Of a DNA stretch of 64,000 nucleotides, positions 3,854 through 63,579 are shown in pieces; positions within the stretch are counted from its first letter, which is position 1, and each line of letters starts with the position of its first letter. This DNA comes from a candidate division WOR-3 bacterium (GTDB lineage Bacteria; Hydrothermota; UBA3073): NCBI GenBank assembly GCA_023129165.1, contig JAGMCL010000111.1, positions 201 through 64,200 on the forward strand, written 5' to 3'. The notes under the pieces were generated by a model. It did no database searches. It was given only the letters and a program-made list of their open reading frames with translations, and was not told where the DNA came from. The translations under genes were made by a program, and so were the position numbers.

Positions 3854-3948
3854 ATGTCTTCTTCTGTGTAAACGTTTTTGAATTTCCTTGACTTTCTCTA
3901 CGTTTGGTGTTATAATAAAACAGAGGACTAAATTTTTCAAAGATAAGT

Positions 3949-4551
3949 ATGGAAAATATTACTTTTTTAAATTCTACAATGTACACGTGGATTATACTTC
4001 CCTTGCTTATTTTGATTGCAAGAATCCTGGATGTAAGCATGGGAACAATACGTGTTATACTCATGGCGAAAGGGGTTAAATTTCTTTCTGCCTTAATAGG
4101 TTTCTTTGAGGTTTTAATATGGCTTCTTGCAATCGGACAGATAATGAAAAATTTGGACAATGTAGTATGTTATTTAGCCTATGGTGGTGGTTTTGCACTG
4201 GGAACTTATCTTGGTATATTAATAGAAGAAAAATTGTCGATTGGAATGGTAATTATTCGAATTATTACCCAGAAGGATGCAACAGAATTGATAAATTATC
4301 TTCAATTAAAAGGCTTTGGAGTTACTCGTGTGGATGCTGAGGGTGCCTATGGTGATGTAAAGATTCTATTTACAATAGTAAGACGTCATGATATTCGTAA
4401 CATTGCAGAAGTTATCCAGAAGTTTAACCCAAAGGCATTTTATTCAGTAGAAGATATAAGATTTGTAAGTGAGGGTATATTTCGTCCTAAAGAACGACAA
4501 TATAGTAAAATTTGTCTGAGAATATTCAGAAGGCATAGAAAGGGGAAATAA
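3949..4551 (+). CDS. YitT/UPF0316-family membrane protein (DUF5698 + DUF2179)
   Basis: Three N-terminal TM helices followed by a soluble DUF2179-like domain (GFGVTRVDAEGAYGD). Confidence 0.55.
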   Translation: MENITFLNSTMYTWIILPLLILIARILDVSMGTIRVILMAKGVKFLSALIGFFEVLIWLLAIGQIMKNLDNVVCYLAYGGGFALGTYLGILIEEKLSIGMVIIRIITQKDATELINYLQLKGFGVTRVDAEGAYGDVKILFTIVRRHDIRNIAEVIQKFNPKAFYSVEDIRFVSEGIFRPKERQYSKICLRIFRRHRKGK

Positions 4552-8995: not shown

Positions 8996-9122
8996 GCCTG
9001 CCCTGTAGTGATAATGTGCAGGGCCTGCCCTGTAGTGGTAATGTGCAGGGCCTGCCCTGTAGTGGTAATGTGCAGGGCCTGCCCTGTAGTGGTAATGTGC
9101 AGGGCCTGCCCTGTGCGAACGA
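8996..9122. repeat. tandem array of 27-bp hairpin repeats, about 4.7 copies, with no spacers
   Basis: The unit GCCCTGTAGTGGTAATGTGCAGGGCCT has a 6-bp stem (GCCCTG/CAGGGC) and a 13-nt loop. Confidence 0.85.
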
Positions 9123-9238
9123 AGTAATTTTACGGGGTTAATCCTGTCGAATAAAACAGTAAGTTATTTTTTTATACTGTTAAATCTTAGCCTGACCTCG
9201 TAAATGCTCCTTGTATAACAGACAAAAGGAGACATAGA

Positions 9239-11578: not shown

Positions 11579-14449
11579 ATGAAATACTTAAAAAACATAA
11601 AATATAGAAAGAGTCTAAATTGTTTGTTGGCAGGCAAAAAAACCTCGTTAGTAATATTTATGATACTTGTTTGTTTATCTGCAAAGGCAAATACTGATAA
11701 CAATATCGACGAGAGATGGAGTGATATTTTGAGACAAGGAGAGTGTAGAACATGGAGTTCAGGGGTAGAAGAAAAGAGGAGACGATTGAGAGGAGATATA
11801 CTAGAAATGAATGGGGAAGCCATTCCTATTCGAATGCCAAAGGGAGAAATTGTAACTGAAACTCAACTGGAAGTAATAAAAGATGTAATTAAAAATGACT
11901 TTCTTGTCAATGATGATACTACTTTTGGATGTTATCAATATACTCCTTCAGTAGGGATGAATGGTTCAGGTTGCTTTGTAATCTGCTGGCAGGATGGACG
12001 TAATAGCAACAGGGACATCTACACGCAGATATATGATGCTGGAGGGACTCCTCAGGGGTCTAACTTCAGGGTGAATGATGATGCAGGGACAAGTGAAAAA
12101 TGGTACCCTTCAGTAGCGATGGATGGTTCAGGCGGCTTTATAATCTGCTGGGAGGATGGACGTAATGGTGACTGGGATATCTATGCACAAATGTATAATG
12201 CCAGTGGGGCTCCACAAGGTCCTAACTTCAGGGTGAATGATGATGTAGGGTCAAGTAGTCAATGGTATCCTTCAGTAGCGATGAATGGGTATAGCAGCTT
12301 TGTAATCTGCTGGCAGGATGGACGTAATGGCGACAAGGACATCTACGCGCAGATGTATGATGTTAGTGGAAGTCCACAGGAATTTAACTTCAGGGTGGAT
12401 GATGATACAGGGTCAAGTTATCAACGCTGGCCTTCAGTAGCGATGGATGGGTCAGGCAGTTTTGTAATCTGCTGGAAGGATGAACGTAATGATTGGGATA
12501 ATCCTGACATCTACGCGCAGATTTATGATGTTAGTGGGACTCCACAGGGTTCTAACTTCAGGGTAGATGATGATACATGGGCAAGCGATCAATATACTCC
12601 TTCAGTAGCGATGGATGGGTCAGGCAGTTTTGTAATCTGCTGGAAGGATGAACGTAATGATTGGGATAATCCTGACATCTACGCGCAGGTGTATGATGCA
12701 AGTGGAACTCCCCAGGGGTCTAACTTCATAGTGAATGATAATACAGGGTCAAGCGGTCAACACAGGCCTTCAGTAGCGATGGATGGGTCAGGCAGTTTTG
12801 TGATCTGCTGGTATGATCGGCGTAATGATGATTATGACATCTACGCGCAGGTGTATGATGCAAGTGGAACTCCCCAGGGGTTTAACTTCATGGTGAATGA
12901 TGATGTAGGGTCAAGTAGTCAATGGTGTCCTTCAGTAGCGATGAATGAGTCAGGCAACTTTGTGATCTGCTGGGAGGATAAGCGTAACGGTGACAGGGAC
13001 ATCTACACACAGAGGTATGATGCTGGAGGGACTCCACAGGGTTCTAACTTCAGGGTGAACGATGATACAGGATCAAGTAGTCAATGGTATCCTTCAGTAG
13101 CGATGAATGGGTATAGCAGCTTTATAATCTGCTGGGAGGATGTACGTTATGGCAACAATGACATCTATGCACAGATGTATGATGCCAGTGGGACTCCACA
13201 GGTATCTAACTTCAGGGTGAATGATGATACATGGATGTATCGAGGGTATCCTTCAATAGCAATTGATAGTTCAGGCAACTTTTTAATCTGTTGGCAGGAT
13301 CTGCGTAATAGCTGGGATTATCCCGATCCTGACATCTACGCGCAGATGTATGATGCTGGAGGGACTCCACAGGGTTCTAACTTCAGGGTGAATGATGATA
13401 CAGGGGAATGTAGGCAAAAGTATCCTTCAGTAGCGATGGATAGGTCTGGCAGCTTTGTAATCTGCTGGTATGATCGACGTAGTTACGAGAAGGACATCTA
13501 CGCGCAGATGTATAATGCGAGTGGGACTCCTCAGGGGTCTAACTTCAGAGTGAATGATGATGTAGTGTCAAGAGATCAATGGTATCCTTCGGTAGCGATG
13601 GATGGGTCAGGCAGCTTTGTAATCTGTTGGGAGGATAAACGTAATGGCAACTGGGATATCTATGCACAAAGGTATGATACTAATGGAACTCCACTGGATT
13701 CCAACTTCAGGGTGAATGATGATACAGGTGTAAGTGAACAAGGGTATCCTTCAATAGGGATGGATGGTTCAGGCAGCTCTTTAATCTGTTGGGAAGATGA
13801 ACGTAATGGTGACAATGACATCTATGCACAGATGTATGATGCAAGTGGGAATCCTCAGGGGTCTAACTTCAGGGTGAATGATGATGCAGGTGTAAGTGAA
13901 CAAGGGTATCCTTCAATAGCGATGGATCCATTCGGGAGCAGGTTTGTAGTTGTATGGACAGATTTCAGAAATCCTGACGGTGACCCTGAGATTGTGGCGC
14001 AGAAATACGTGAATGGATCTCCTGTTGGTAACAATGTTCAGATAAATGAGCCTGATTTATTTCTGTATAATCATCAATTGTCAGGAAAATACTCTGTTGA
14101 TTGCAATAATGATATAGTTGTATTTACGTGGATGGACAATCGTAGGCATAAGGGGTGGGACATATATGGCAAATTGACCGATTGGGAACTTGTGGGGATA
14201 GAAGAAGATATAATACCTCAGGTTCCAGACCTTAAACTGAGAGTATATCCTAATCCCTTCCGTAGTCGTATTACAATATGTGGAGGAGATAGTAAGCTGG
14301 AAATCTATGACCTCTGTGGGAGATTGATAATAAAAACAGATAATAACTCCTGGAATGGTACAGACCAAAAGGGTAATGAAGTACAATCAGGTATTTATTT
14401 TATAAAGTCTAAAGGTTATGAACCTATGAAAGTAGTGAAGACAAAGTGA
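11579..14449 (+). CDS. T9SS cargo protein built from about 17 tandem repeats of roughly 46 aa
   Basis: Repeat consensus GTPQGSNFRVNDDTGSSSQWYPSVAMDGSGSFVICWEDGRNGDxDIYAQMYDAS. The array spans 11900-13950 with a DNA period of 138-144 bp. C-terminal CTD is VYPNPF ... EIYDLCGRLI ... GIYFIK. Confidence 0.7.
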   Translation: MKYLKNIKYRKSLNCLLAGKKTSLVIFMILVCLSAKANTDNNIDERWSDILRQGECRTWSSGVEEKRRRLRGDILEMNGEAIPIRMPKGEIVTETQLEVIKDVIKNDFLVNDDTTFGCYQYTPSVGMNGSGCFVICWQDGRNSNRDIYTQIYDAGGTPQGSNFRVNDDAGTSEKWYPSVAMDGSGGFIICWEDGRNGDWDIYAQMYNASGAPQGPNFRVNDDVGSSSQWYPSVAMNGYSSFVICWQDGRNGDKDIYAQMYDVSGSPQEFNFRVDDDTGSSYQRWPSVAMDGSGSFVICWKDERNDWDNPDIYAQIYDVSGTPQGSNFRVDDDTWASDQYTPSVAMDGSGSFVICWKDERNDWDNPDIYAQVYDASGTPQGSNFIVNDNTGSSGQHRPSVAMDGSGSFVICWYDRRNDDYDIYAQVYDASGTPQGFNFMVNDDVGSSSQWCPSVAMNESGNFVICWEDKRNGDRDIYTQRYDAGGTPQGSNFRVNDDTGSSSQWYPSVAMNGYSSFIICWEDVRYGNNDIYAQMYDASGTPQVSNFRVNDDTWMYRGYPSIAIDSSGNFLICWQDLRNSWDYPDPDIYAQMYDAGGTPQGSNFRVNDDTGECRQKYPSVAMDRSGSFVICWYDRRSYEKDIYAQMYNASGTPQGSNFRVNDDVVSRDQWYPSVAMDGSGSFVICWEDKRNGNWDIYAQRYDTNGTPLDSNFRVNDDTGVSEQGYPSIGMDGSGSSLICWEDERNGDNDIYAQMYDASGNPQGSNFRVNDDAGVSEQGYPSIAMDPFGSRFVVVWTDFRNPDGDPEIVAQKYVNGSPVGNNVQINEPDLFLYNHQLSGKYSVDCNNDIVVFTWMDNRRHKGWDIYGKLTDWELVGIEEDIIPQVPDLKLRVYPNPFRSRITICGGDSKLEIYDLCGRLIIKTDNNSWNGTDQKGNEVQSGIYFIKSKGYEPMKVVKTK

Positions 14450-14472
14450 TTGGAAAGTAAGAAGGAAACAAT

Positions 14473-15524
14473 GGGGTTAAATCTCGAAACTTGACAAATA
14501 ATCAATTCTCGTTATAATAATATTATGGCAAGACCATTAAGAATAGAATATCCGGGTGCCTTTTACCACGTGACCTGCCGTGGCAATGGACGTGCAAATA
14601 TCTTTTTTAATGATGGAGATCGACAGAGGTTTCTTATGATGCTTGAAGAGTCAATAAAAATCTATCGGGTTATTCTCAATGCTTATATCTTGATGGATAA
14701 TCACTTTCATCTGTTGGTGCAGACCGAGCGTGCTAATCTATCAGAGTTCATGCGTCGTTTTAATGTTTCTTATACTGGTTGGTTCAATTATCGGCATGAT
14801 CGTTGTGGCCATCTCTATCAGGGAAGATACAAGGCTTTCTTGATAGATGTAGATAGTTACTTACTTGAGGTTTCCCGTTACCTTCACTTAAATAGTGTCC
14901 GGGCAAGAAGCTTACATTCCTTGGATTATCAAAGGCAGTGGCAGTATGCAAAGAAATATAAATGGAGTAGTTTGCCTGGGTATATTAGTAAAAAGCGGGT
15001 TGCTGATTTCATTAAATACGACATGATTCTTGAGATGGTTGGTGGTCGGCGTAGGTATCAATCATTTATATTGGATGGATTAAAGCATGACATTGATAAT
15101 CCTTTTGAGGAGGCGCAGAATCAGGTGATATTGGGTGGTGATGAATTTATCGCTCGTATTAAGAGTGAATATACAGATGGTTCGTTACGTGAACAGCCAT
15201 CATATCGTGATTTAATGGTGGAGATCGTAGAACCAGAGTTGGTAATGAAATGTGCTACTGAGACATTGGGTATTGAGCGAGGGGATTTACAGAAACGTTA
15301 TGTTAATAGTGATGCTCGTGGTATTGTGAGTGATTTGTTGTATAGATATAGTGCTTTGACCCAGGTTGAGATAGGGAAGTTATTAGGAGGCATTGACTAT
15401 ACAGGGGTTAGCAAGTTGCGAGTTCGTTTGAGGCGGAGGATGTCATATGACAAGCGGGTTAGTGCGAGTTATGAGAAAACCGAGGCAAAGCTTAAGGAAT
15501 TGTCAAGTTTCGAGATTTGACCCC
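14473..15524 (+). mobile_element. compact RAYT-type Y1 HUH unit bounded by 25-bp imperfect inverted repeats
   Basis: GGGGTTAAATCTCGAAACTTGACAA at 14473-14497 and its reverse complement, with one mismatch, at 15500-15524. The left repeat contains the -35 TTGACA of a TTGACA-16-TATAAT promoter (-10 at 14513-14518). Confidence 0.55.
14525..15520 (+). CDS. REP-associated tyrosine transposase-like protein (IS200-like Y1 HUH family) with a C-terminal helical extension
   Basis: HUH motif NHFHLLVQ, catalytic-Tyr region GHLYQGRYKAF, and N-terminal YHVTCRGN, as in COG1943 proteins. A single ORF with no tnpB. Confidence 0.7.
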   Translation: MARPLRIEYPGAFYHVTCRGNGRANIFFNDGDRQRFLMMLEESIKIYRVILNAYILMDNHFHLLVQTERANLSEFMRRFNVSYTGWFNYRHDRCGHLYQGRYKAFLIDVDSYLLEVSRYLHLNSVRARSLHSLDYQRQWQYAKKYKWSSLPGYISKKRVADFIKYDMILEMVGGRRRYQSFILDGLKHDIDNPFEEAQNQVILGGDEFIARIKSEYTDGSLREQPSYRDLMVEIVEPELVMKCATETLGIERGDLQKRYVNSDARGIVSDLLYRYSALTQVEIGKLLGGIDYTGVSKLRVRLRRRMSYDKRVSASYEKTEAKLKELSSFEI

Positions 15525-15548
15525 ATTACCTACTCAAATTGATTTCAT

Positions 15549-15700
15549 GTCCTGCCTGACGGTAGGTAGGCAAGAGATTACTTGACGCCTTTCCTGCCTG
15601 TCGGCCAGACAGGTAATTATTATCACAGCATATACGCTGCGGGCTTCGCCCTTGACCTTCGGGACATGCTCCCTTCGGTCACAGGTCGTATATCATGGAA
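15549..15700. repeat. cluster of REP-like GC-rich palindromes
   Basis: CCTGCCTGACGGTAGGTAGGCAAG, CCTGCCTGTCGGCCAGACAGG, and CCTTCGG direct repeats. Confidence 0.6.
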
Positions 15701-15752
15701 CCGTTAGGCGAAATTATTCTTGGAAAAGCAACAATGTTAAGGAGGTAAAGAA

Positions 15753-16262
15753 ATGATGAGAAGTATAAGACATGTAAAAATCCCGTTATTTCTAATATCG
15801 AGTTTCCTTTGTTTAATGTTTTTGTTTTCTGGTTGTTCATCTGAATCTGAAAAAGATACTGCTAAACCACCTAACTATACGGACAAGATAGAGATTGAAG
15901 TGATACTGGAACCTTCAAGTAATCTTGAAGATCTGCATCAAAATGATATTATTTACACAATCACAAATTATGGAGACAAGACTATCACAGAGCTTTCCTG
16001 CGAGGTTGTATTCTATAATCGAGACGATACGGAAGTAGGAAGAATGCCTTGGTTGTTTCTCACAGTTGACAAGAAGTGGGAAGGTTTAGCCGTTGAAAGT
16101 CAGAAGGCAGTATATCGTTCTCTTCCTCCTGGCAAAACAATGAGCGCTGGTTATCCTTATCCTGCCTTCTTTGTCGGTCAGCCAGAACTCAGAAGTAAAG
16201 TAAAAGCTAACTGGGACAATCTGACAGTAAAACCAATTATAAAAAAGGTAATTGTAAAATAG
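15753..16262 (+). CDS. lipoprotein, function unknown
   Basis: Signal peptide with lipobox FSGCSS. Confidence 0.45.
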   Translation: MMRSIRHVKIPLFLISSFLCLMFLFSGCSSESEKDTAKPPNYTDKIEIEVILEPSSNLEDLHQNDIIYTITNYGDKTITELSCEVVFYNRDDTEVGRMPWLFLTVDKKWEGLAVESQKAVYRSLPPGKTMSAGYPYPAFFVGQPELRSKVKANWDNLTVKPIIKKVIVK

Positions 16263-17513: not shown

Positions 17514-18443
17514 ATGAGGAATAGTCGAATATTTCTTATCCTCATTTTATTACTTTTTTTTATATCAATAATCTCTCTTTTTTTAGGTGTCTCCATTCCC
17601 TCTCTTCTTGTTGTTACTAAGATTAGGTTACCCAGACTTGTCCTTGCCATATTTGCCGGTGGTGCACTTGGTATTGTTGGTGCTGCTTTCCAGGGATTAT
17701 TACGCAATCCACTTGCAGACCCATACATAATTGGAGTTTCAGGAGGAGCTACACTGGGTGGGACTATATCTATTCTTTTGGGGATATGGCCCATACAAGC
17801 ATTTGCATTTGCAGGTGCAGTTGTTACTATATTTATTGTTGAGAGACTTGCAACTATATCCGGCAGGATGGAGCGAGAGACATTGCTCCTTTCAGGAGTT
17901 GTATTCGGAACACTAACATCATCTCTTGTAATATTATTTATGACAATAGGCGGTAAGAGTCTTGATGAGATGATTTACCTTATAATGGGTTGGCTGGGTG
18001 TCATCTGGGATAAAAAACTACTTATTGGATTTATTGTATCTGCCTTGATTGTGACTGTTTGCTCTTTTATAATCTGGATGCGTTCTAAGGAATTGAATAT
18101 ACTATCTTCAGGCGAGGAAGAAGCTATCTCTATAGGCGTGGATGTTGAAAGGCTTAAAAGAGAGATATTCATACTTGGTTCGATTATTGTAGGACTTGTT
18201 GTTTCACTTTGTGGCGCAATAGGTTTCATTGGCTTGATTGTTCCACATATAACAAGACTTATTCTGGGGCCTGACCATCGTGTCTTAATTCCTGGTTCAG
18301 CAATATTAGGCGCAGTGCTTCTTGTGCTTTCGGATATGATTGCAAGGGGTATTGCTGTTTATGAGTTACCCGTGAGCGTAATTACGGCACTCTTCGGTGT
18401 CCCCTTTTTCCTTTATCTCTTGAGAAGAAAAAATGTTAATTAG
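17514..18443 (+). CDS. FecCD-family ABC transporter permease (iron/cobalamin type)
   Basis: Motif LLRNPLADPYIIGVSGGA and about 9 TM helices. No adjacent ATPase or binding protein. Confidence 0.7.
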   Translation: MRNSRIFLILILLLFFISIISLFLGVSIPSLLVVTKIRLPRLVLAIFAGGALGIVGAAFQGLLRNPLADPYIIGVSGGATLGGTISILLGIWPIQAFAFAGAVVTIFIVERLATISGRMERETLLLSGVVFGTLTSSLVILFMTIGGKSLDEMIYLIMGWLGVIWDKKLLIGFIVSALIVTVCSFIIWMRSKELNILSSGEEEAISIGVDVERLKREIFILGSIIVGLVVSLCGAIGFIGLIVPHITRLILGPDHRVLIPGSAILGAVLLVLSDMIARGIAVYELPVSVITALFGVPFFLYLLRRKNVN

Positions 18444-19064
18444 TTAATTGGTTGATTAGTTGAATAGTTGAATGTTACATATGAAATGTTTGATGTGATG
18501 GTAGGAGCGACTTCCTAGTCGCGATAGAGGGAAGAGCGTCCCAGTGGAATAGTTGACACATTCCACAGGATAAATAGGGCGTAATGCGAAGAGCGTAGGG
18601 AGTAGGGCGATTGATGATTGACGAATGACGATTGAAGATTAGGGACATGTTAAAGGGTAAAAGGCAAATGGCAAATGTAATTAATTGTGGATTTCGGATT
18701 GCGAATTAGGGAAATGTTAAATATTTAATAGGATAAGAGTTAATTAGTTGAATATTAGATGTTACATGTTGAATGTTTAATGTTGAATGGGAAATTGACG
18801 ATTGGCGATTGAAGATTACGAATTTATAATTTCCATTTGAAAATTGGCTTGATCCTTTAACCATATTACTTTTTTACCTTTACCTTTTACTTTTTACTTT
18901 TACCTTTTTACTTATCTAATGACTCAATGACCCTAAGACTCTATTTATAAACCCAATGAACCCAATAAACTAAACAAACCAGACAAACTAAATAAACTAA
19001 ACAAACCAAATAAACTCAATAAACTCAACAAACCGTGTAAACTCAATAAACTAATTTTACTTTT
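18444..19064. repeat. 600-bp low-complexity word-repeat spacer
   Basis: Runs of ttgaatgtt, gattgaagatta, ttttacctttt and aaataaactaaacaaacc-type 9-mers. GTAGGAGCGACTTCCTAGTCGCGATA at 18507-18532 recurs at 20229-20254. Confidence 0.6.
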
Positions 19065-20150: not shown

Positions 20151-20615
20151 TTAAAGGGGAAAGAATATTTCAAACTACAGAGGACACAGAGGAAAATAAA
20201 CAATGTAAAATGTTGAATGTTAAATGTTTAATGTAGGAGCGACTTCCTAGTCGCGATAAATTCCCATAAGGGTTAATCGGGGTTAGGAAACCCCTCCTAC
20301 AAAAAGGGAGGGTAGGAGCCCCGCCTTTGGCGGGGGAATAAGAGAAGAGAGATGAGGAATTAAAGCAAACTGACATCTGTGGTTTATACTTGCATAGCAA
20401 TATTAAAAGATGGGATAAAGAGATTATTTTATAGAGGTCACAGAGGGGAGGAATAAAAATCTTTTATAATCTCTTGATACTAAAGATTCTCTGTGGTTCC
20501 CCTATTAAATAAAGTACCAGAAGCGATGACTTGTACTTAATTTTGTAACTATTTAACAGGGTGAATCTGTGGTTAGATTTTTGACAATAGTCTACAAAAT
20601 TAAAGGGGTAAGAAT

Positions 20616-30534: not shown

Positions 30535-31092
30535 TTATTCATAGTGTAGATAAATAGAAAACTTCTCAATACCCTTTCGAACGCCATCTGTAACTGCTCT
30601 TGATGATATAGTTGCTGCAGTAATGGCATCTATTGTGCCGCCATATGATTTCAATCGAATTTCCTCTAATTTTTTACACCTAAACTGGTCTAGAAAAAAT
30701 GCCTCAGTAATCTTCACACCAAGTCCAGGTGTCTCCTTCAGTCCTTCAGAAGGAGTTGCAGGTCTTATCGTTACTATAGTTGTATCAGTGGCTAAACCCA
30801 CGAGTGTCTCGATTGGTCCACCATATCCCTTTGGAAAGACCTTGAACAATATCCCAATTCGGTTCCCTGTAGAATCCAGAGCTGCCCAGAGTGTATCTTT
30901 AAGCAATGTATCTCCTTCAACTATATAATACGAGAAAGAGTGGGCTATAGGAAAAACTTCACGAAGTTGTTCGTCTAATTTTTCCTCGATACCTTCTTCA
31001 ATTATTGGTGTCGTGACAGTATATACATATGATAGAAGCGCTGCTGATGCCAGACATACAATTAGTAGTGATAAAATCATTTTAAGCTTCAT
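30535..31092 (-). CDS. FMN-binding domain protein (RnfG/NqrC-like)
   Basis: N-terminal TM helix and the covalent-FMN motif GGTIDAITAATISSRAV. Confidence 0.65.
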   Translation of the reverse strand: MKLKMILSLLIVCLASAALLSYVYTVTTPIIEEGIEEKLDEQLREVFPIAHSFSYYIVEGDTLLKDTLWAALDSTGNRIGILFKVFPKGYGGPIETLVGLATDTTIVTIRPATPSEGLKETPGLGVKITEAFFLDQFRCKKLEEIRLKSYGGTIDAITAATISSRAVTDGVRKGIEKFSIYLHYE

Positions 31093-31113
31093 AATTCCTT
31101 CTTATCAAATTTT

Positions 31114-31439
31114 CGGTATTGTGCAAAATATTTTAACTAATTTCTCATAACCTATGGTTTTTAAAGCTGTTAACAATTTTTTGCTTGCCTCCCCCTAATT
31201 CTTGTAGGGGTCGGATTCCCGTCTACCCTGCCTACCGGCAGGCAGGCGTCGGGCGGGTATCCGACCCGTTTCTTTTACGGGTTCGATAAATCGAACCCGT
31301 ACATTTTTGCTTTCTTATTCTTTCTACTAACGGATTGTCCTCTATATACTTATGAATATATGGAGCTTATTTACGGGTTCGATAAATCGAACCCCTACAT
31401 TTTTGCTTTCTTATTCTTTCATATTCTATTTCACACTAC
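31114..31439 (-). repeat. copy D of the leader-associated TIR/hairpin repeat family, carrying the extra module and REP
   Basis: TIRs CGGTATTGTGCAAAATATT and GGTAGTGTGAAATAG. GGGTTCGATTTATCGAACCC occurs twice. CCTGCCTACCGGCAGGCAGG and CCCCTACAAGAATTAGGGG are present. Ends 21 nt upstream of the FMN-binding gene start. Confidence 0.8.
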
Positions 31440-31900
31440 CAAATTTTCTATATTTTGAGCAACTTAATTATACTTCTATTTTCTTGTAGATATATAGTAT
31501 CTTTGAAATATGTCTTAACTGTAATTTATTATACATCAAATATAGGAATTTGTCAACTGATTTTTTATTAAAAATTGGGTTTATTAACGTTAAAATTCTA
31601 TCTGTTTCTTATGTGATTCTTTCTTGGCAAAAGATGCAGAATAACAAAATACATATGGATTCATAGGTTGTTATAAATAGGTTGTTATAAATATGTAAAG
31701 AGTAAGAATTCAAGACGATTTAATCGTATCTGCCTGTTGGCAGATATAATATATCAACTAAATTGAAGAAGAACTGAATTTTTAAATATATAGATGGTAG
31801 ATATAAAAGGTGAAAGAGAAGATTATGGGTGATACTATGTAATATTTTTAATAAGTATTTACTTTTGGGGGGCACATCATAGTGCCCCCCAATTTTGTCT

Positions 31901-41148: not shown

Positions 41149-41184
41149 AAAACTTTTGTGGATTTTCTCTTATTCCACTTTTTT

Positions 41185-41326
41185 TTATAATTATCAATTA
41201 TTTACTTAACTCCCCCTGATTCTTGTAGGGGTCGGATTCATCCGACCCGTTTCTTTTGCAGGTTCGATAAATCGAACCCCTACATTTTTGATTTCATATT
41301 CTTTCATATTCTATTTGACACTACCG
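41185..41326 (-). repeat. copy E (short) of the leader-associated repeat family
   Basis: CGGTAGTGTCAAATAGAATATGAAAGAATATGAAAT, GGGTTCGATTTATCGAACC, GGGTCGGATGAATCCGACCC and CCCCTACAAGAAT. Intercistronic, co-oriented with the dapA-like gene. Confidence 0.75.
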
Positions 41327-41372
41327 TTTATCTAATTGGAATACTTAATAATACTATCTATGATGCTAAAAT

Positions 41373-43261: not shown

Positions 43262-43280
43262 GTTATATAAGTTTTATTTT

Positions 43281-43660
43281 TGATACTGTGAAAAATAATA
43301 TGAAAGAATATGAAAGCTAAAATGTAGGGGTTCGATTTATCGAACCCGCAAATAAACCCCCTTCTGAAAGGAATTATTATGAGCATGTAATCAGGAATGA
43401 GAAAGCCTTACATAATATTCATAGGTATATAGAGGACAATACGTTAGTAGAGAGAATAAGATTTGAAGAATTCTATAGAAACGGGTCGGATACCCGTCGG
43501 GCAGGAATCCGACCCCTACAAAAATCAGGGTTGGATGAATCCGACCCCTACAAGAATTAGGGAGAGGAAAGAAAAAAATTGATAATTACTTTAAAAACTA
43601 TAGGTTATTCGTTAGCTAACGAATTACGATAAATTAGATAAGATATTTTTCACACTACCG
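43281..43660 (+). repeat. copy A of the leader-associated repeat family, with extra module and tandem CCCCTACAA duplication
   Basis: TIRs ACTGTGAAAAATA and TATTTTTCACACTACCG. Hairpins GGGTTCGATTTATCGAACCC, GGGTCGGAT ... ATCCGACCC and CCCCTACAAGAATTAGGG. Ends 16 nt before the ATG at 43677. Confidence 0.85.
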
Positions 43661-43676
43661 TATTTTTCATCAGGGG

Positions 43677-45260
43677 GTGGCAATGAAGAATATATTTGTT
43701 TTTGTGCTTTTGGGAACTTTTATATTAGTTTCCTCTCTGATGTTTGCGTCGGAACTCTATGTCAGTTTTGACAACTTCTATCCCATTTTTACGTCAGAAA
43801 TCTATGTCAGTTATGAGTTGTACCCTCGTAAACCCTATCCAGAGTCTTATCCCAAGAATGATGAGATTTCCCTGAGAATTAGAGGTATAAACAAACATCT
43901 TGCAGGGATTGTATCTGATACAATAACTGATATGCTCTGGAACCCAGCAAGACTACCCTCAAAGAGTTTCATCTCTTTTCGGGTTCCAAACAGAATAGTC
44001 ACCTCGCTTCCGGGTCCCTTAAAAACGAGATTGGGAATATTATTAGAAGGAAGTTACTCTGAATCGGAGAATAAGTACAGAGAGAAAGAGCCTTCTTACT
44101 ATTATTGGGACTATCATTATACTGATTATTTAAATAGTCACAGCAGTAGTCATTCAGGCAATACATACAAGGGGGTACTCCTTGGGTCAAAGCAGGTTAA
44201 TCCTAATACCTGCATTGGATTAAGATTAGATTACTCCTTGAAGCCTAATACAAGCAGTGATGACTGGATATATAGATATACCCGTGAAAGGAACTATGAT
44301 AGCTATGAGCGGTTAGATAGTAGAGATGATATTAGAGAATACAACGGTGCAGACACTACATCTTCCTGGTCTCTTGGCATCGGCATACTCTCTTCAATCC
44401 GTAAATCAGATGTGGAAATTGTCCTTATGTACAGAAATCAAAAGGAGCTGGGTCACTTTCTTGACAGCAGGAGAGAGAATGGATATGGAGAATACATTCG
44501 CACATACGATAGCACAACATATACAGATATCCACAACTTTGAATCCGAAAGACTGGCAGAGGAATATGATTTTCTCAATCCCCAGATATGGAGTCTGGGG
44601 ATGAGATTGTCCAGGGATATAACCCCTACCTCAACATTTAGGACAATAGCTACTCTCTATAAAGGATATGGAGATGCACAGAGAGAGAGAAAAAATCTAA
44701 GGTACTATTATGAAGACCGTTATTACAGCTACTCAGATCCTGACACCTTCTATGCCCATGGTGATACATCTGAATCCTATCAGGAAGATGAGAGTGTGCT
44801 TGAGGGTGATGCAAATATTCTCGGTGGTCTTCTCGCCCTGGGGCAGGAATTTAGTGTTTCCCCCAAACTCTCTGGGGGGGTTGGAATCAGAATCTCCTAC
44901 GAGAAAAGTGAGGTTAAACTCACAGGAACAAGGGATGAGGTTTATGATACCCTGACCTCGCATTCCGCAATAGAAGAGAAGAGCATTGGAAGAAAAACCT
45001 ATGTCTATCTTCCCATGGGCATTGAATACAGACCTATACCAGAAATCGCTGTAAGATTTGGGATTAGCATCTATGGCTTTCATCATCTCCTGGAAGAGAA
45101 TACCAGCGAAGGCTACAGCAAATCAAAATATACAAACGGTCCCTATTATAACATCAGTTTTGGTGCCGGTTATAACTGGAAGAGATTTAAGTTTGATATC
45201 TATACAATGGATGTTGCAGCAATTAAGTCGTGGGAAATTGAATTATGCTACAGTTTGTGA
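43677..45260 (+). CDS. secreted protein, possible outer-membrane beta-barrel, function unknown
   Basis: Signal peptide, Tyr/Asp/Ser-rich composition, and alternating-hydrophobicity C-terminal strands. Confidence 0.45.
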   Translation: MAMKNIFVFVLLGTFILVSSLMFASELYVSFDNFYPIFTSEIYVSYELYPRKPYPESYPKNDEISLRIRGINKHLAGIVSDTITDMLWNPARLPSKSFISFRVPNRIVTSLPGPLKTRLGILLEGSYSESENKYREKEPSYYYWDYHYTDYLNSHSSSHSGNTYKGVLLGSKQVNPNTCIGLRLDYSLKPNTSSDDWIYRYTRERNYDSYERLDSRDDIREYNGADTTSSWSLGIGILSSIRKSDVEIVLMYRNQKELGHFLDSRRENGYGEYIRTYDSTTYTDIHNFESERLAEEYDFLNPQIWSLGMRLSRDITPTSTFRTIATLYKGYGDAQRERKNLRYYYEDRYYSYSDPDTFYAHGDTSESYQEDESVLEGDANILGGLLALGQEFSVSPKLSGGVGIRISYEKSEVKLTGTRDEVYDTLTSHSAIEEKSIGRKTYVYLPMGIEYRPIPEIAVRFGISIYGFHHLLEENTSEGYSKSKYTNGPYYNISFGAGYNWKRFKFDIYTMDVAAIKSWEIELCYSL

Positions 45261-45507
45261 TACTGTGAAAAATAATACGAAAGAATATGAAAGCAAAAAT
45301 GTAGGGGTTCGATTTATCGAACCCGCAAAAGAAACGGGTCTGATACCCGTCCGACGCCTGCCTGACGGTAGGCAGGGCAGACGGGAATCCAACCCCTACA
45401 AGAATTAGGGGAAGGCAAGCAAAAAATTGATAATTACTTTAAAAACTGCAAATTGTTAGTTAGCTAACGAATTATAAGAAATTAGTTAAAATATTTTTCA
45501 CATTGCC
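45258..45507 (+). repeat. copy B of the leader-associated repeat family, containing an embedded REP
   Basis: Starts at the upstream gene's stop codon. Has TIRs, the three hairpins and CCTGCCTGACGGTAGGCAGG. Ends 23 nt before the ATG at 45531. Confidence 0.85.
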
Positions 45508-45530
45508 CATCACCATAAACAGGAGGTATT

Positions 45531-47929: not shown

Positions 47930-48003
47930 GTAGGGCAAGGCTTAAGCCTTGCAAAAGCAAACCTAAAGCCTGCCTGCCGGTAGGCAGGGTTTGCCCTACA
48001 TTA
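47930..48003 (+). repeat. compound REP-like palindromic element, upstream copy
   Basis: GTAGGGCAA ... GGCTTAAGCC ... CCTGCCTGCCGGTAGGCAGG ... TTGCCCTAC. An approximately 90% identical copy in inverted orientation lies at 53443-53512. Confidence 0.7.
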
Positions 48004-48282
48004 ATAGGTTAATAAAAGCTTCATGATTGCCCTGCTTACAAACAGGTGTCAAGCAAGTCAACATTGTTACCTGTAACATAATAATTTATGTTCCTCCTGG
48101 GCTTATATGATACTATTTCAATTCGTGCTTGCACGGTTAAAAACCGCGACTGCCGTCAGGCAGGCGTGCCTACATTTTAAGTAGGCCGTGTTTGTAGGCA
48201 CGAATTCAATTCGTGCTTGCTATCAAACTTGGTCACCCTTCAGTGTGACCATTATGCAAACTTTATTGACCTGGAGGTGATT

Positions 48283-53418: not shown

Positions 53419-53442
53419 TATCAATGACCATAAGTCAACATA

Positions 53443-53512
53443 TGTAGGGCAAACCCTGCCTACCGGCAGGCAGGCTTCAGGTTTGCTTTTACGCAAGGGT
53501 TAAGCTCTTACC
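53443..53512 (-). repeat. compound REP-like palindromic element, downstream inverted copy
   Basis: Reverse complement matches 47930-48003. Confidence 0.7.
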
Positions 53513-62091: not shown

Positions 62092-62397
62092 TATTTTCCT
62101 TGAATCTAATTATATGATCACCCACCATTCTAACTCCTTAATATTTACTAACTTAAGCTTGCCTTGTAATTCATATTTAGATTTTGGTGATACAAAAACA
62201 CTCTATTGATTTTTATTCAACTTGTATTCTTGATTGCAGATACACATTATTATCATTGCACTCTATAAATGATTATTGTAGATACACTACCTACCATCAG
62301 GCAAGTTATCCTTGCGAAAAGAGAGAAGGTAAGATCGCAAACTGCTCTTTGTCGCATACTCTGTGAGTGGTTAGTTTTTTGGCAATACTAAATCTTA

Positions 62398-62632
62398 GAT
62401 ACTATGAAAAATAATATGAAAGAATATGAAAGCGAAAATGTAGGGGTTCGATTTATCGAACCCGTAAAAGAAACTGGTCGGATACACGTCTGCCCTGCCT
62501 ACCGGCAGGCAGGCGTCGGGCAGGAATACGACCCGTACAAGAATTAGGGGAAGGCAAGTAAAAAATTGATAATTATCTTAAAAACTGTAGGTTATGAGAA
62601 GTTAGTTGAGATATTTTTGGCAATACTAAACC
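62398..62632 (+). repeat. copy C of the leader-associated repeat family, containing a REP
   Basis: Hairpins and CCTGCCTACCGGCAGGCAGG are present. Flanked by direct repeats TTTTTGGCAATACTAAA at 62375-62391 and 62614-62630. Ends 18 nt before the ATG at 62650. Confidence 0.8.
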
Positions 62633-62649
62633 TTAAACAAGAAGAAAAA

Positions 62650-63579
62650 ATGAATAGAATCCTGGTATTTCTAACTATATTAATTATTGCAGGATGCTCG
62701 ACTAAAAAAGATGTGAAACCATTGGCTGATTTTGATGCACTCTGGGATTACAATAATCCTGAGCAGACTGAAATCAAATTTCGGGAATTGATATCTATAG
62801 CAAAACAATCAGGTAACCTATCTTATTATGCCCAATTGTTGACACAAATAGCAAGGACACAAGGATTGCAGTATAAGTATGAGGATGCTCATCAAACACT
62901 TGATAGTGTTGAAACCATATTAACGGATGATTTAATTCTTGCAAGAATAAGATTTCTTCTTGAAAGAGGAAGGGTGTATAATTCTTCAAATTACCCGGAT
63001 AAAGCTAAAACACTCTTTTTAGAAGCATGGAAAATCGCAGATGCGAATAAAAAAGACTTCTATGCAATTGATGCAATACATATGTTGCAAATTGTTGAAC
63101 CACCAGAAAAACAGATAGAGTGGGCTAATAAAGCAATAGAACTGGCTGAAAAATCGACTGACCAGCGAGCAAAAAATTGGTTAGGTCCTTTGTACAACAA
63201 TACTGGTTGGACCTATCACGATTTGAAAGAATATGATAAGGCATTAGAGATATTTAAAAAGTTATTAAAATTGCGAGAGGAGAGTAATAATGTATATTCT
63301 ATAATAATCGCTAAATGGTGTATTGCAAGAACTTATCGATCACTCGGCAGAATAGATGAAGCCCTTGATATCCAGAGTGCATTAGAAAAAGAAATTGAAG
63401 AAGGGTTTGAACCCGATGGTTATGTGTTTGAGGAATTAGGGGAGTGTTTATTGTTATTGGGAGAAAAGGAAGAAGCACAAAAATATTTCAAACTTGCATA
63501 CGATATACTTTCAAAAGACGAGTGGTTAGTAAGAAATGAACATGAAAGATTGGAAAGATTAAAAGAGCTTGGAAAGTGA
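62650..63579 (+). CDS. TPR-repeat lipoprotein
   Basis: Start moved to ATG 62650, giving MNRILVFLTILIIAGCS with a lipobox. The ORF-track start at 62566 lies inside the repeat. Tetratricopeptide-like helical repeats. Confidence 0.55.
   Translation: MNRILVFLTILIIAGCSTKKDVKPLADFDALWDYNNPEQTEIKFRELISIAKQSGNLSYYAQLLTQIARTQGLQYKYEDAHQTLDSVETILTDDLILARIRFLLERGRVYNSSNYPDKAKTLFLEAWKIADANKKDFYAIDAIHMLQIVEPPEKQIEWANKAIELAEKSTDQRAKNWLGPLYNNTGWTYHDLKEYDKALEIFKKLLKLREESNNVYSIIIAKWCIARTYRSLGRIDEALDIQSALEKEIEEGFEPDGYVFEELGECLLLLGEKEEAQKYFKLAYDILSKDEWLVRNEHERLERLKELGK

Follow-up and report, generated by a model that had tools for sequence, protein, structure and literature searches.

The window analyzed here is a 64-kb stretch of DNA from a metagenome-assembled genome (MAG) of candidate division WOR-3. 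Between positions 14472 and 15525 it holds a single plus-strand gene (14525-15520), encoding a 331-residue protein and enclosed by two 26-bp terminal inverted repeats (TIRs). A preliminary description made from the sequence alone had taken this gene for a domesticated repetitive extragenic palindrome (REP)-associated tyrosine transposase (RAYT), a Y1/HUH enzyme that disperses the GC-rich palindromes of the surrounding DNA. The enzyme class was borne out, with residues 14-121 matching Pfam Y1_Tnp (E = 3.9e-13, 50 bits against a cutoff of 23); the role in dispersing REPs was not. We assign the gene with high confidence to the TIRYTs, the RAYT-like genes with long inverted repeats whose units were named TIRtrons by Di Nocera, De Gregorio, and Rocco (2013, BMC Genomics 14:522, PMC3733652), and 14472-15525 is, on balance, probably one intact single-gene TIRtron, a compact insertion sequence (IS)-like unit with its 26-bp TIRs as cis sites.

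The 25-mer at 14473-14497 differs at one position from the reverse complement of 15500-15524, and the 24-of-25 match described earlier could be extended to 27 of 28 nt (14470-14497 and 15500-15527). These two arms were the only copies of the 25-mer in the window, with 0.00 expected from 100 shuffles. The left arm (14472-14497) begins with T, followed by the tip GGGGTTAAATCT at 14473-14484 and by two 7-nt units, TCGAAAC at 14484-14490 and TTGACAA at 14491-14497, and its complementarity to the right arm continues outward to 14470. The right arm (15500-15525, minus strand) appears on the forward strand as TTGTCAA GTTTCGA GATTTGACCCC A, is complementary to the left arm out to 15527, and overlaps the end of the gene, as had been noted before; the overlap covers the last seven codons, with the TGA stop at 15518-15520 inside the arm. 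When examined as single-stranded DNA, neither arm folded better than its shuffles (z from -0.6 to +0.5), in agreement with the earlier statement that the repeats are not palindromic.

The left repeat also supplies the -35 element of the gene's own promoter, as had been proposed. The promoter (14491-14518, plus strand) comprises TTGACA at 14491-14496 inside the repeat, a 16-nt spacer, and TATAAT at 14513-14518, matching the sigma-70 consensus at 12 of 12 positions. Because the ATG begins 6 nt after the -10 element, the mRNA is probably leaderless. The arrangement points to a leaderless transcript whose promoter would be covered when the left arm is bound.

The Y1/HUH nuclease domain spans residues 14-121 (14564-14887). 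In a 29-sequence alignment, H60 and H62 of the HUH motif (NHFHLL, with H60-F-H62 encoded at 14702-14710) and the catalytic Tyr102 within QGRY (14828-14830) were invariant; these residues of the motifs first pointed out thus stood, but Tyr98 of the GHLYQGRYKAF motif is not invariant. The AlphaFold2 model was confident at residues ~10-105 and 235-325. When the N-terminal domain was searched with Foldseek, the best match was the E. coli REP-associated transposase 4er8_A (E = 1.6e-5), followed by the TnpA proteins of IS608 and ISDra2; only this fold search found the HUH domain, which a sequence-profile search of the PDB did not recover. The C-terminal extension contains a predicted DnaA-domain-IV-like helix-turn-helix (HTH) at residues ~235-325 (15227-15499), modeled with a per-residue confidence (pLDDT) of 72-94 and matched by Foldseek to DnaA domain IV in 3pvp_B (TM 0.87, rmsd 1.6 Å) and 1j1v_A (TM 0.86). 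The profile search agreed weakly, returning 1j1v at E = 0.038, and Pfam PF08299 was found on the homologue P0097, with no Pfam match to that domain in the window protein. As modeled, the TIRYT is a RAYT-like Y1/HUH single-strand nuclease fused to a predicted DnaA-domain-IV-like double-strand DNA-binding domain. Neither a second Y1 gene nor tnpB was found within the 64-kb window, consistent with the lone gene with a C-terminal extension of the original account.

Two modules in the terminal repeats

More than 6,400 full-length homologues of ~330 residues exist. A scan of species-representative genomes yielded 80 loci, or 81 counting the window, from WOR-3, Stahlbacteria, Desulfobacterota-type lineages, Spirochaetota, the PVC group, Binatia, and Anaerolineales, and several genomes carry two to four paralogues that are only ~50-60% identical to the window protein. 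Of the 81 loci, 73 had the repeat tip on the left and 73 on the right, with 67 having it on both sides. In an alignment of 72 left and 73 right arms, the outer boundary was sharp, with T at position -1 in 72-77% of the arms. The tip consensus, (T)GGGGTCAAATCT, was conserved at 99-100% at positions 2-5 and 7-12 and at 90-100% at positions 1 and 6. A loose likeness of the tip to the tRNA T-arm GGTTCAAATCC was judged coincidental.

The inner part of the arm behaved differently. Positions 13-25 differ among loci, and the two arms of the same locus agree there in 68-100% of cases (at least 80% at positions 13-24), compared to 35-80% when arm pairings were shuffled. This inner segment consists of two tandem 7-nt units, with a self-match of 0.60 at a shift of 7 versus 0.18-0.31 at other shifts. 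Examples include TCTACAT TCTACAT, TTCACAA TTCACAA, TTGACTA TTGACAA, and the TCGAAAC TTGACAA of the window. Residues of the predicted recognition helix track the inner units: DYT[GA]VSK is found with TCGAAAC TTGACAA, DYGAVYL with TCTACAT twice, [EG]YTAVNM with TTCACAA twice, and DYVSVHH with TTTGCAT TTTGTAT. Both the unit consensus, TTnACA, and the TnCACA half of the DnaA box, for which PMC6006769 cites the consensus TT[AT]TnCACA, contain T..ACA, a likeness that is suggestive only. One metagenome contig from the Logan collection (L085, positions 1-1073, SRR29366191) has the tip TTTGGGCAACACGCCC in place of GGGGTCAAATC and keeps two 7-nt units (TCTACAT TGAACAT).

The placement of the arms relative to the gene is also conserved. 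Most loci have 51-66 nt between tip and ATG, and in 39 homologous loci the ATG follows the end of the -10 element by 5-7 nt. The first base of the -35 element is arm position 19 in 25 loci; in others, whose second unit does not resemble TTGACA, the element adjoins the arm at its inner end. Of 68 intact genes, 65 have their stop codon within the right arm, at no fewer than seven positions and in all three frames, so the tip is conserved as DNA and not as peptide. Relative to five relatives, the protein has a ratio of nonsynonymous to synonymous substitution rates (dN/dS) of ~0.2, and the repeat is essentially unchanged at dS up to 0.68.

In the window copy, position 6 of the left tip (14478) is T; C occupies this position in 96% of the 72 left arms and in all 73 right arms. 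Given this rare T at an otherwise invariant position, the window copy, which looks single-copy and old, may be impaired and poorly mobile.

The element resembles the published TIRtrons in that a RAYT-like Y1 gene lies inside long TIRs unrelated to GTAG REPs, with the 3' repeat overlapping the open reading frame (ORF). The text of the 2013 paper describes TIRs that keep a constant distance to the ORF and overlap its 3' end, genomes with several paralogues that are differently decorated, and repeat families of moderate abundance. It also gives the motif GGGGWSAS for some of the TIRs. The outer ends of the arms here are GGGG followed by 4 nt; GGGGTCAA, found in the right arm and as the family consensus, fits that motif at 7 of 8 positions, and GGGGTTAA of the left arm fits at 6 of 8, the motif being published for "some" TIRs. 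Non-palindromic flanks, which had been thought unusual for the enzyme family, are the defining trait of a named class, according to the text of both that paper and Quentin, Siguier, Chandler, and Fichant (2018, PMC6006769). The latter text places most TIRYTs in TnpA_REP-like subclass 2.1, whose members have a C-terminal Bac_DnaA_C-like or HTH domain (HTH_23/28) and no REPs nearby, and its authors identify the subclass with the TIRYTs; the window protein is like subclass 2.1 (2.1.2) in its length, its Bac_DnaA_C-like HTH, and the lack of REPs detected by the gene.

There are also differences. The hosts here are WOR-3, Stahlbacteria, and Desulfobacterota-type MAGs, which are not among the species named in the text of the 2013 paper. 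The two-module repeat, with a 12-nt tip and co-varying 7-nt units, is absent from the text of both papers, figures aside, as are the leaderless promoter with its -35 element in the repeat and the frame-independent overlap with the stop codon. In the text of the 2018 paper, the authors doubt that the DnaA-like domain reads the repeats, as GGGGWSAS is unlike the DnaA box; here the inner TTnACA units have T..ACA in common with the 3' half of the DnaA box and co-vary with the recognition helix, which is no more than suggestive. As the window element has the defining features of TIRYTs and TIRtrons, it is a new member of a known, uncharacterized kind. Our literature search found TIRYTs treated in these two papers and no TIRYT biochemistry; the "Esi" paper (PMC5442856) proved to be unrelated.

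Unit boundaries and dispersal

The nucleotide homology (blastn) between the window and four loci of 81-90% identity (L002-L005) runs from 14472 to 15525/15526 and then stops; with a fifth locus, L001 (94% identity), it begins at 14463. In the window, the gene has as neighbors a repeat-rich 956-residue protein, a 169-residue protein, and tryptophanyl-tRNA synthetase (TrpRS). None of the four flanking gene products of the window was found in L001, L002, L004, or L005, and in L003 there was one weak match (E = 1e-7) to the 956-residue protein and to no other flanking product. Four short contigs of the Logan assemblies have a repeat tip at each end (L081, 1057 nt; L084, 1070 nt; L086, 1073 nt; and L085, 1073 nt, with the variant tip), and a Joint Genome Institute (JGI) contig of similar length does not end at tips. 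The runs SRR14339846, SRR14699980, and SRR26538809 are among the sources of such tip-bounded contigs. As k-1 for k = 31 exceeds the length of the inverted repeat, these breaks would reflect more than one flanking context. The chance of four of five such contigs being bounded by tips was estimated at ~2e-4, for contigs that had been selected for near-unit length, which tempers the argument.

The arms themselves are dispersed. Across 583 kb of homologue loci, there were 30 extra tip copies compared to ~2.6 expected, and one metagenome contig held 10 tips of several types within 10 kb. When metagenomes were scanned with the window-type 25-mer, 25 contigs were recovered, only two of which had the full gene. 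Gene-less inverted arm pairs of 89, 101, 105, and 118 bp were found along with many solo arms, and a 151-bp pair retains only the last 30 codons. The dispersed repeat of the TIRYT family is, on these counts, the flanking inverted repeat itself. Copies of the gene have also been disrupted, with an in-frame stop at codon 146 in L001 and truncated or fragmented genes in L015, L056, and L065.

The sequence just beyond the tips carries a further signal. Of 66 loci that have both arms, 11 show complementarity running 3-7 nt past the tips into locus-specific sequence (~3.9 expected, p ~0.002); examples are the window (14470-14472 and 15525-15527), L019, L017, L058, and L057. This suggests insertion at the center of short palindromic T|A sites.

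Several rearrangements were observed at element ends. Tandem duplications lie at 3914-3960 in L023, 3925-3962 in L050, 3925-3962 in L059, and 3921-3950 and 5003-5047 in L067; in the first three, tip positions 1-13 are duplicated together with 6-10 nt of flank, and the unit in L067 is slightly longer. Such duplications may be the footprint of staggered breaks near repeat position 13, for which they are weak evidence. Duplications of flank plus whole arm occur in L007 (935-1004) and L026 (3909-3990). Arrays of the left arm with the first 74-104 codons lie upstream of a complete copy in L056 (3399-5304) and L065 (3950-5381), and in L038 (6263-6584) a fragment for residues 1-88 is followed by a solo window-type arm, the L002 locus of the same genome having the window type. 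These left-end arrays look like abortive or one-ended events. An 89-bp gene-less arm pair is common to L099 (4572-4660) and L107 (163-251); the right flanks are 88% identical and the left flanks show no relation beyond the tip, so that a rearrangement has its breakpoint at the arm tip.

We consider it likely that the unit is mobile, or was so until recently, and that the repeats are its cis sites. A number of observations weigh against this reading. The joined flanks of 90 repeat-bounded units were compared to all collected loci, and no junction was spanned, so that an empty site was not found; two candidates, L105 and L110, proved on alignment not to be clean empty sites. No target-site duplication was found, and no additional copy of the repeat lies within the window. 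Paralogues of the same genome are 50-60% identical and not near-identical. Orthologous positions across species are occupied for the pairs L004/L005, L013/L026, and L063/L070, and such synteny indicates that long-term vertical residence is common and activity at most rare. Plasmid and phage collections gave distant N-terminal matches only and no full-length relative. As for the protein, its middle third (residues 110-232) was poorly modeled by AlphaFold2, the correspondence between HTH motif and inner repeat may be owed merely to shared ancestry, and the nick site and strand proposed for the tip are putative.

Much of this would suit a fully domesticated and immobile host gene, in which the repeats are operators for the DnaA-like domain, serving autoregulation and perhaps looping, and the other arms are the operators of a regulon. 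Each genome has one diverged copy of each type, some loci are syntenic across species, and neither an empty site nor full-length copies on plasmids or phages were seen; the purifying selection (dN/dS of ~0.2) and the -35 box within the left arm are also in keeping with such a gene. An operator would not explain, however, why the second site always lies over the stop codon, exactly where the unit ends on its 3' side, why genomes that lack synteny are homologous only as far as the tips and assembly contigs break there, or why the HUH residues and Tyr102 are invariant. Nor does it account for the miniature pairs of arms (89-151 bp), among them one that, with the last 30 codons, is like an internal-deletion derivative. 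We therefore regard the operator explanation as unlikely, and prefer the mobile TIRtron.

GC-rich palindromes and other repeats of the window

The preliminary interpretation, that of a domesticated RAYT dispersing GC-rich, GTAG-tagged REP-like hairpins with the inverted repeats being incidental or regulatory, drew on palindromes that do exist in this DNA. Five exact CCTGCC..GGCAGG palindromes are scattered through the window (31227, 45357, 47969, 53455, and 62494; 0 expected), and 13 of its 95 perfect hairpins carry a TGTAGGG foot. Two GC-rich imperfect palindromes lie directly 3' of the gene (15549-15615, plus strand), pairing into one long hairpin with z = -3.2. Only one Y1 gene is visible in the 64 kb, its nearest fold is the E. 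coli RAYT 4er8, and the text of the 2013 paper (PMC3733652) leaves open whether TIRYTs act on GTAG repeats.

The scattered palindromes thus stood up to examination, but the two next to the gene (15551 and 15594) are degenerate, having only 16 nt in common with the CCTGCC..GGCAGG family and no GTAG foot. They lie outside the conserved unit, where homology ends at 14472 and 15526, and the palindrome is missing from 85 of 87 related loci. There is no REP 5' of the gene, only the non-folding left arm. GTAG-tagged hairpins make up 32 of 1197 hairpins (2.7%) in all homologue loci, a background level, and the 2018 text (PMC6006769) reports no REPs near subclass 2.1 genes. The protein scored 54.3 bits against the NCBIfam RAYT equivalog REP_Tyr_transpos, for which the cutoff is 80. 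A canonical RAYT may sit elsewhere in the genome, of which only 64 kb is visible. Being outside the unit and absent near homologues, the palindromes are a feature of the genome, not of the element; from their distribution we concluded that the REP-like hairpins are genuine in this genome but not tied to the TIRYT gene, and a REP-dispersing role for that gene is very improbable.

The comparison with canonical RAYTs and their REPtrons (E. coli TnpA_REP, 4er8) is nonetheless close in some respects. They have the closest HUH fold, and in both there is a single gene between inverted copies of a repeat that is also dispersed as monomers and inverted doublets. In contrast to canonical RAYTs, the flanking repeats here are neither hairpins nor GTAG-footed, and the protein is about twice as long, falls below the equivalog cutoff, and has the predicted double-strand DNA-binding domain.

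Membership in IS200/IS605, with the arms forming either a 5'-3' panhandle in the transcript or each a subterminal hairpin, would be in line with the Pfam Y1_Tnp match and the complementary arms, but it is extremely unlikely, as the arms fold no better than shuffles, the 331-residue protein has an extra predicted double-strand DNA-binding domain, Rfam finds nothing in the region, and the panhandle was rejected because the left arm, holding the -35 element with the ATG 6 nt past the -10, lies 5' of the likely transcription start and hence is not in the mRNA. The IS200/IS605 TnpA proteins (IS608, ISDra2) do share with the TIRYT the Y1/HUH domain, its one catalytic tyrosine, and the lack of a target-site duplication. 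They differ in their size of ~130-150 residues without an HTH domain, and in ends that are asymmetric subterminal hairpins cut on the same strand, without TIRs, where the element here has symmetric 26-bp TIRs and non-folding arms. IS200/IS605 copies are usually identical within a genome. Here one copy was found in the window and diverged paralogues in MAGs, and the tip-bounded contigs hint at multiple contexts in some samples.

The spacer downstream of the element (15527-15752, 226 nt) has a GC content of 47% versus 37% for the window and holds three hairpin modules with no Rfam match. Its segment 15545-15625 folds with z = -3.2, and the second palindrome there (15595-15615) looks like a terminator. 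At 15629-15695, a closing stem, ATATACG/CGTATAT, surrounds inner UUCG-type loops. Metagenome contig L110 holds further copies of parts of the spacer (89-90% identity), apart from its TIRYT fragments.

Most of the TGTAGGG-footed hairpins sit in a composite repeat family (at ~31.1-31.5, 41.2, 43.3-43.7, 45.3-45.5, 47.7-48.2, 53.4, and 62.4-62.7 kb). Its members, of ~170-370 nt and in both orientations, lie at 31088-31456, 41173-41341, 43276-43660, 45258-45510, and 62384-62654, with further positions at 47935-48216 and 53442-53490. They are made of GTAG-tagged hairpins (TGTAGGG plus GGTTCGATTTATCGAACC, GGGTCGGAT..ATCCGACCC, and GCAAACC..GGTTTGC) enclosing a CCTGCCTACCGGCAGGCAGG palindrome, and no cognate RAYT for them is visible in the 64-kb window. 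An identical 26-mer, GTAGGAGCGACTTCCTAGTCGCGATA, consisting of GTAG and a palindrome, occurs twice 1.7 kb apart (18501-18526 and 20233-20258).

Other repeats of the window are of a different nature. The gene for the 956-residue protein upstream of the element (11579-14449) encodes ~11-12 tandem repeats of 54-56 residues (period of 162-168 nt) and a C-terminal tail with a weak match to Pfam Por_Secre_tail, a sorting signal of the type IX secretion system (T9SS) type. Four to five head-to-tail copies of the 27-nt unit GCCTGCCCTGTAGTGGTAATGTGCAGG lie at 8996-9130, and A/T-rich tracts with 8-nt and 9-nt periods lie at 18423-18479 and 18949-19056. Rfam searches of the whole window at gathering thresholds, and of 14300-15800 at E <= 5, returned nothing relevant.

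A possible mechanism and its implications

The anatomy of the TIRtron can be put together into a mechanism, the details of which we offer tentatively. The C-terminal domain would read the two TTnACA-type 7-bp units on duplex DNA, thereby setting the specificity of each paralogue, and arm binding would bring the HUH domain to the tip, the invariant (T)GGGGTCAAATCT, for nicking. RAYTs cleave at CT dinucleotides (PMC8266576); the tip here ends in ..ATCT, and cleavage may occur at this CT. With ends that mirror each other, nicks on opposite strands would be expected, unlike the same-strand cuts of IS200/IS605. Occupancy of the left repeat would cover the -35 box and so repress the gene's own leaderless transcript. 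The arm pairs and solo arms may have been moved in trans, as the analogue in the TIRYT family of REPs and their doublets (REPINs).

The proposed arrangement has a parallel in rolling-circle Rep-origin modules, such as the iterons of geminiviruses and plasmids, or the Rep protein and inverted termini (ITRs) of adeno-associated virus (AAV). In these, too, a conserved nick-type sequence lies beside short tandem repeats that confer specificity and vary in step with the cognate HUH protein, and termini are inverted. This is an analogy only; the TIRYT has no helicase domain, and there is no evidence of an episome here.

Somewhat more doubtful still is the broader possibility that TIRYT units are a distinct, unnamed IS family with a hybrid mechanism, in which an iteron reader of the DnaA-IV type loads a HUH nuclease onto a 12-nt tip, opposite-strand nicks are made unlike those of any characterized Y1 transposon, miniatures of 89-151 bp are moved in trans, and orthogonal pairs of protein and iteron coexist in one genome. 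If the two-module repeat is read in the way proposed above, TIRYTs would show how a HUH nuclease that requires single-stranded DNA can be recruited to ordinary duplex inverted repeats, and would supply sets of naturally orthogonal pairs of protein and site. For annotation, the genes in WOR-3, Stahlbacteria, and Desulfobacterota MAGs are to be described as "TIR-bounded Y1 elements" and not as "REP element-mobilizing RayT," and the motif (T)GGGGTCAAATCT marks the ends of TIRYT elements and of their miniature derivatives.

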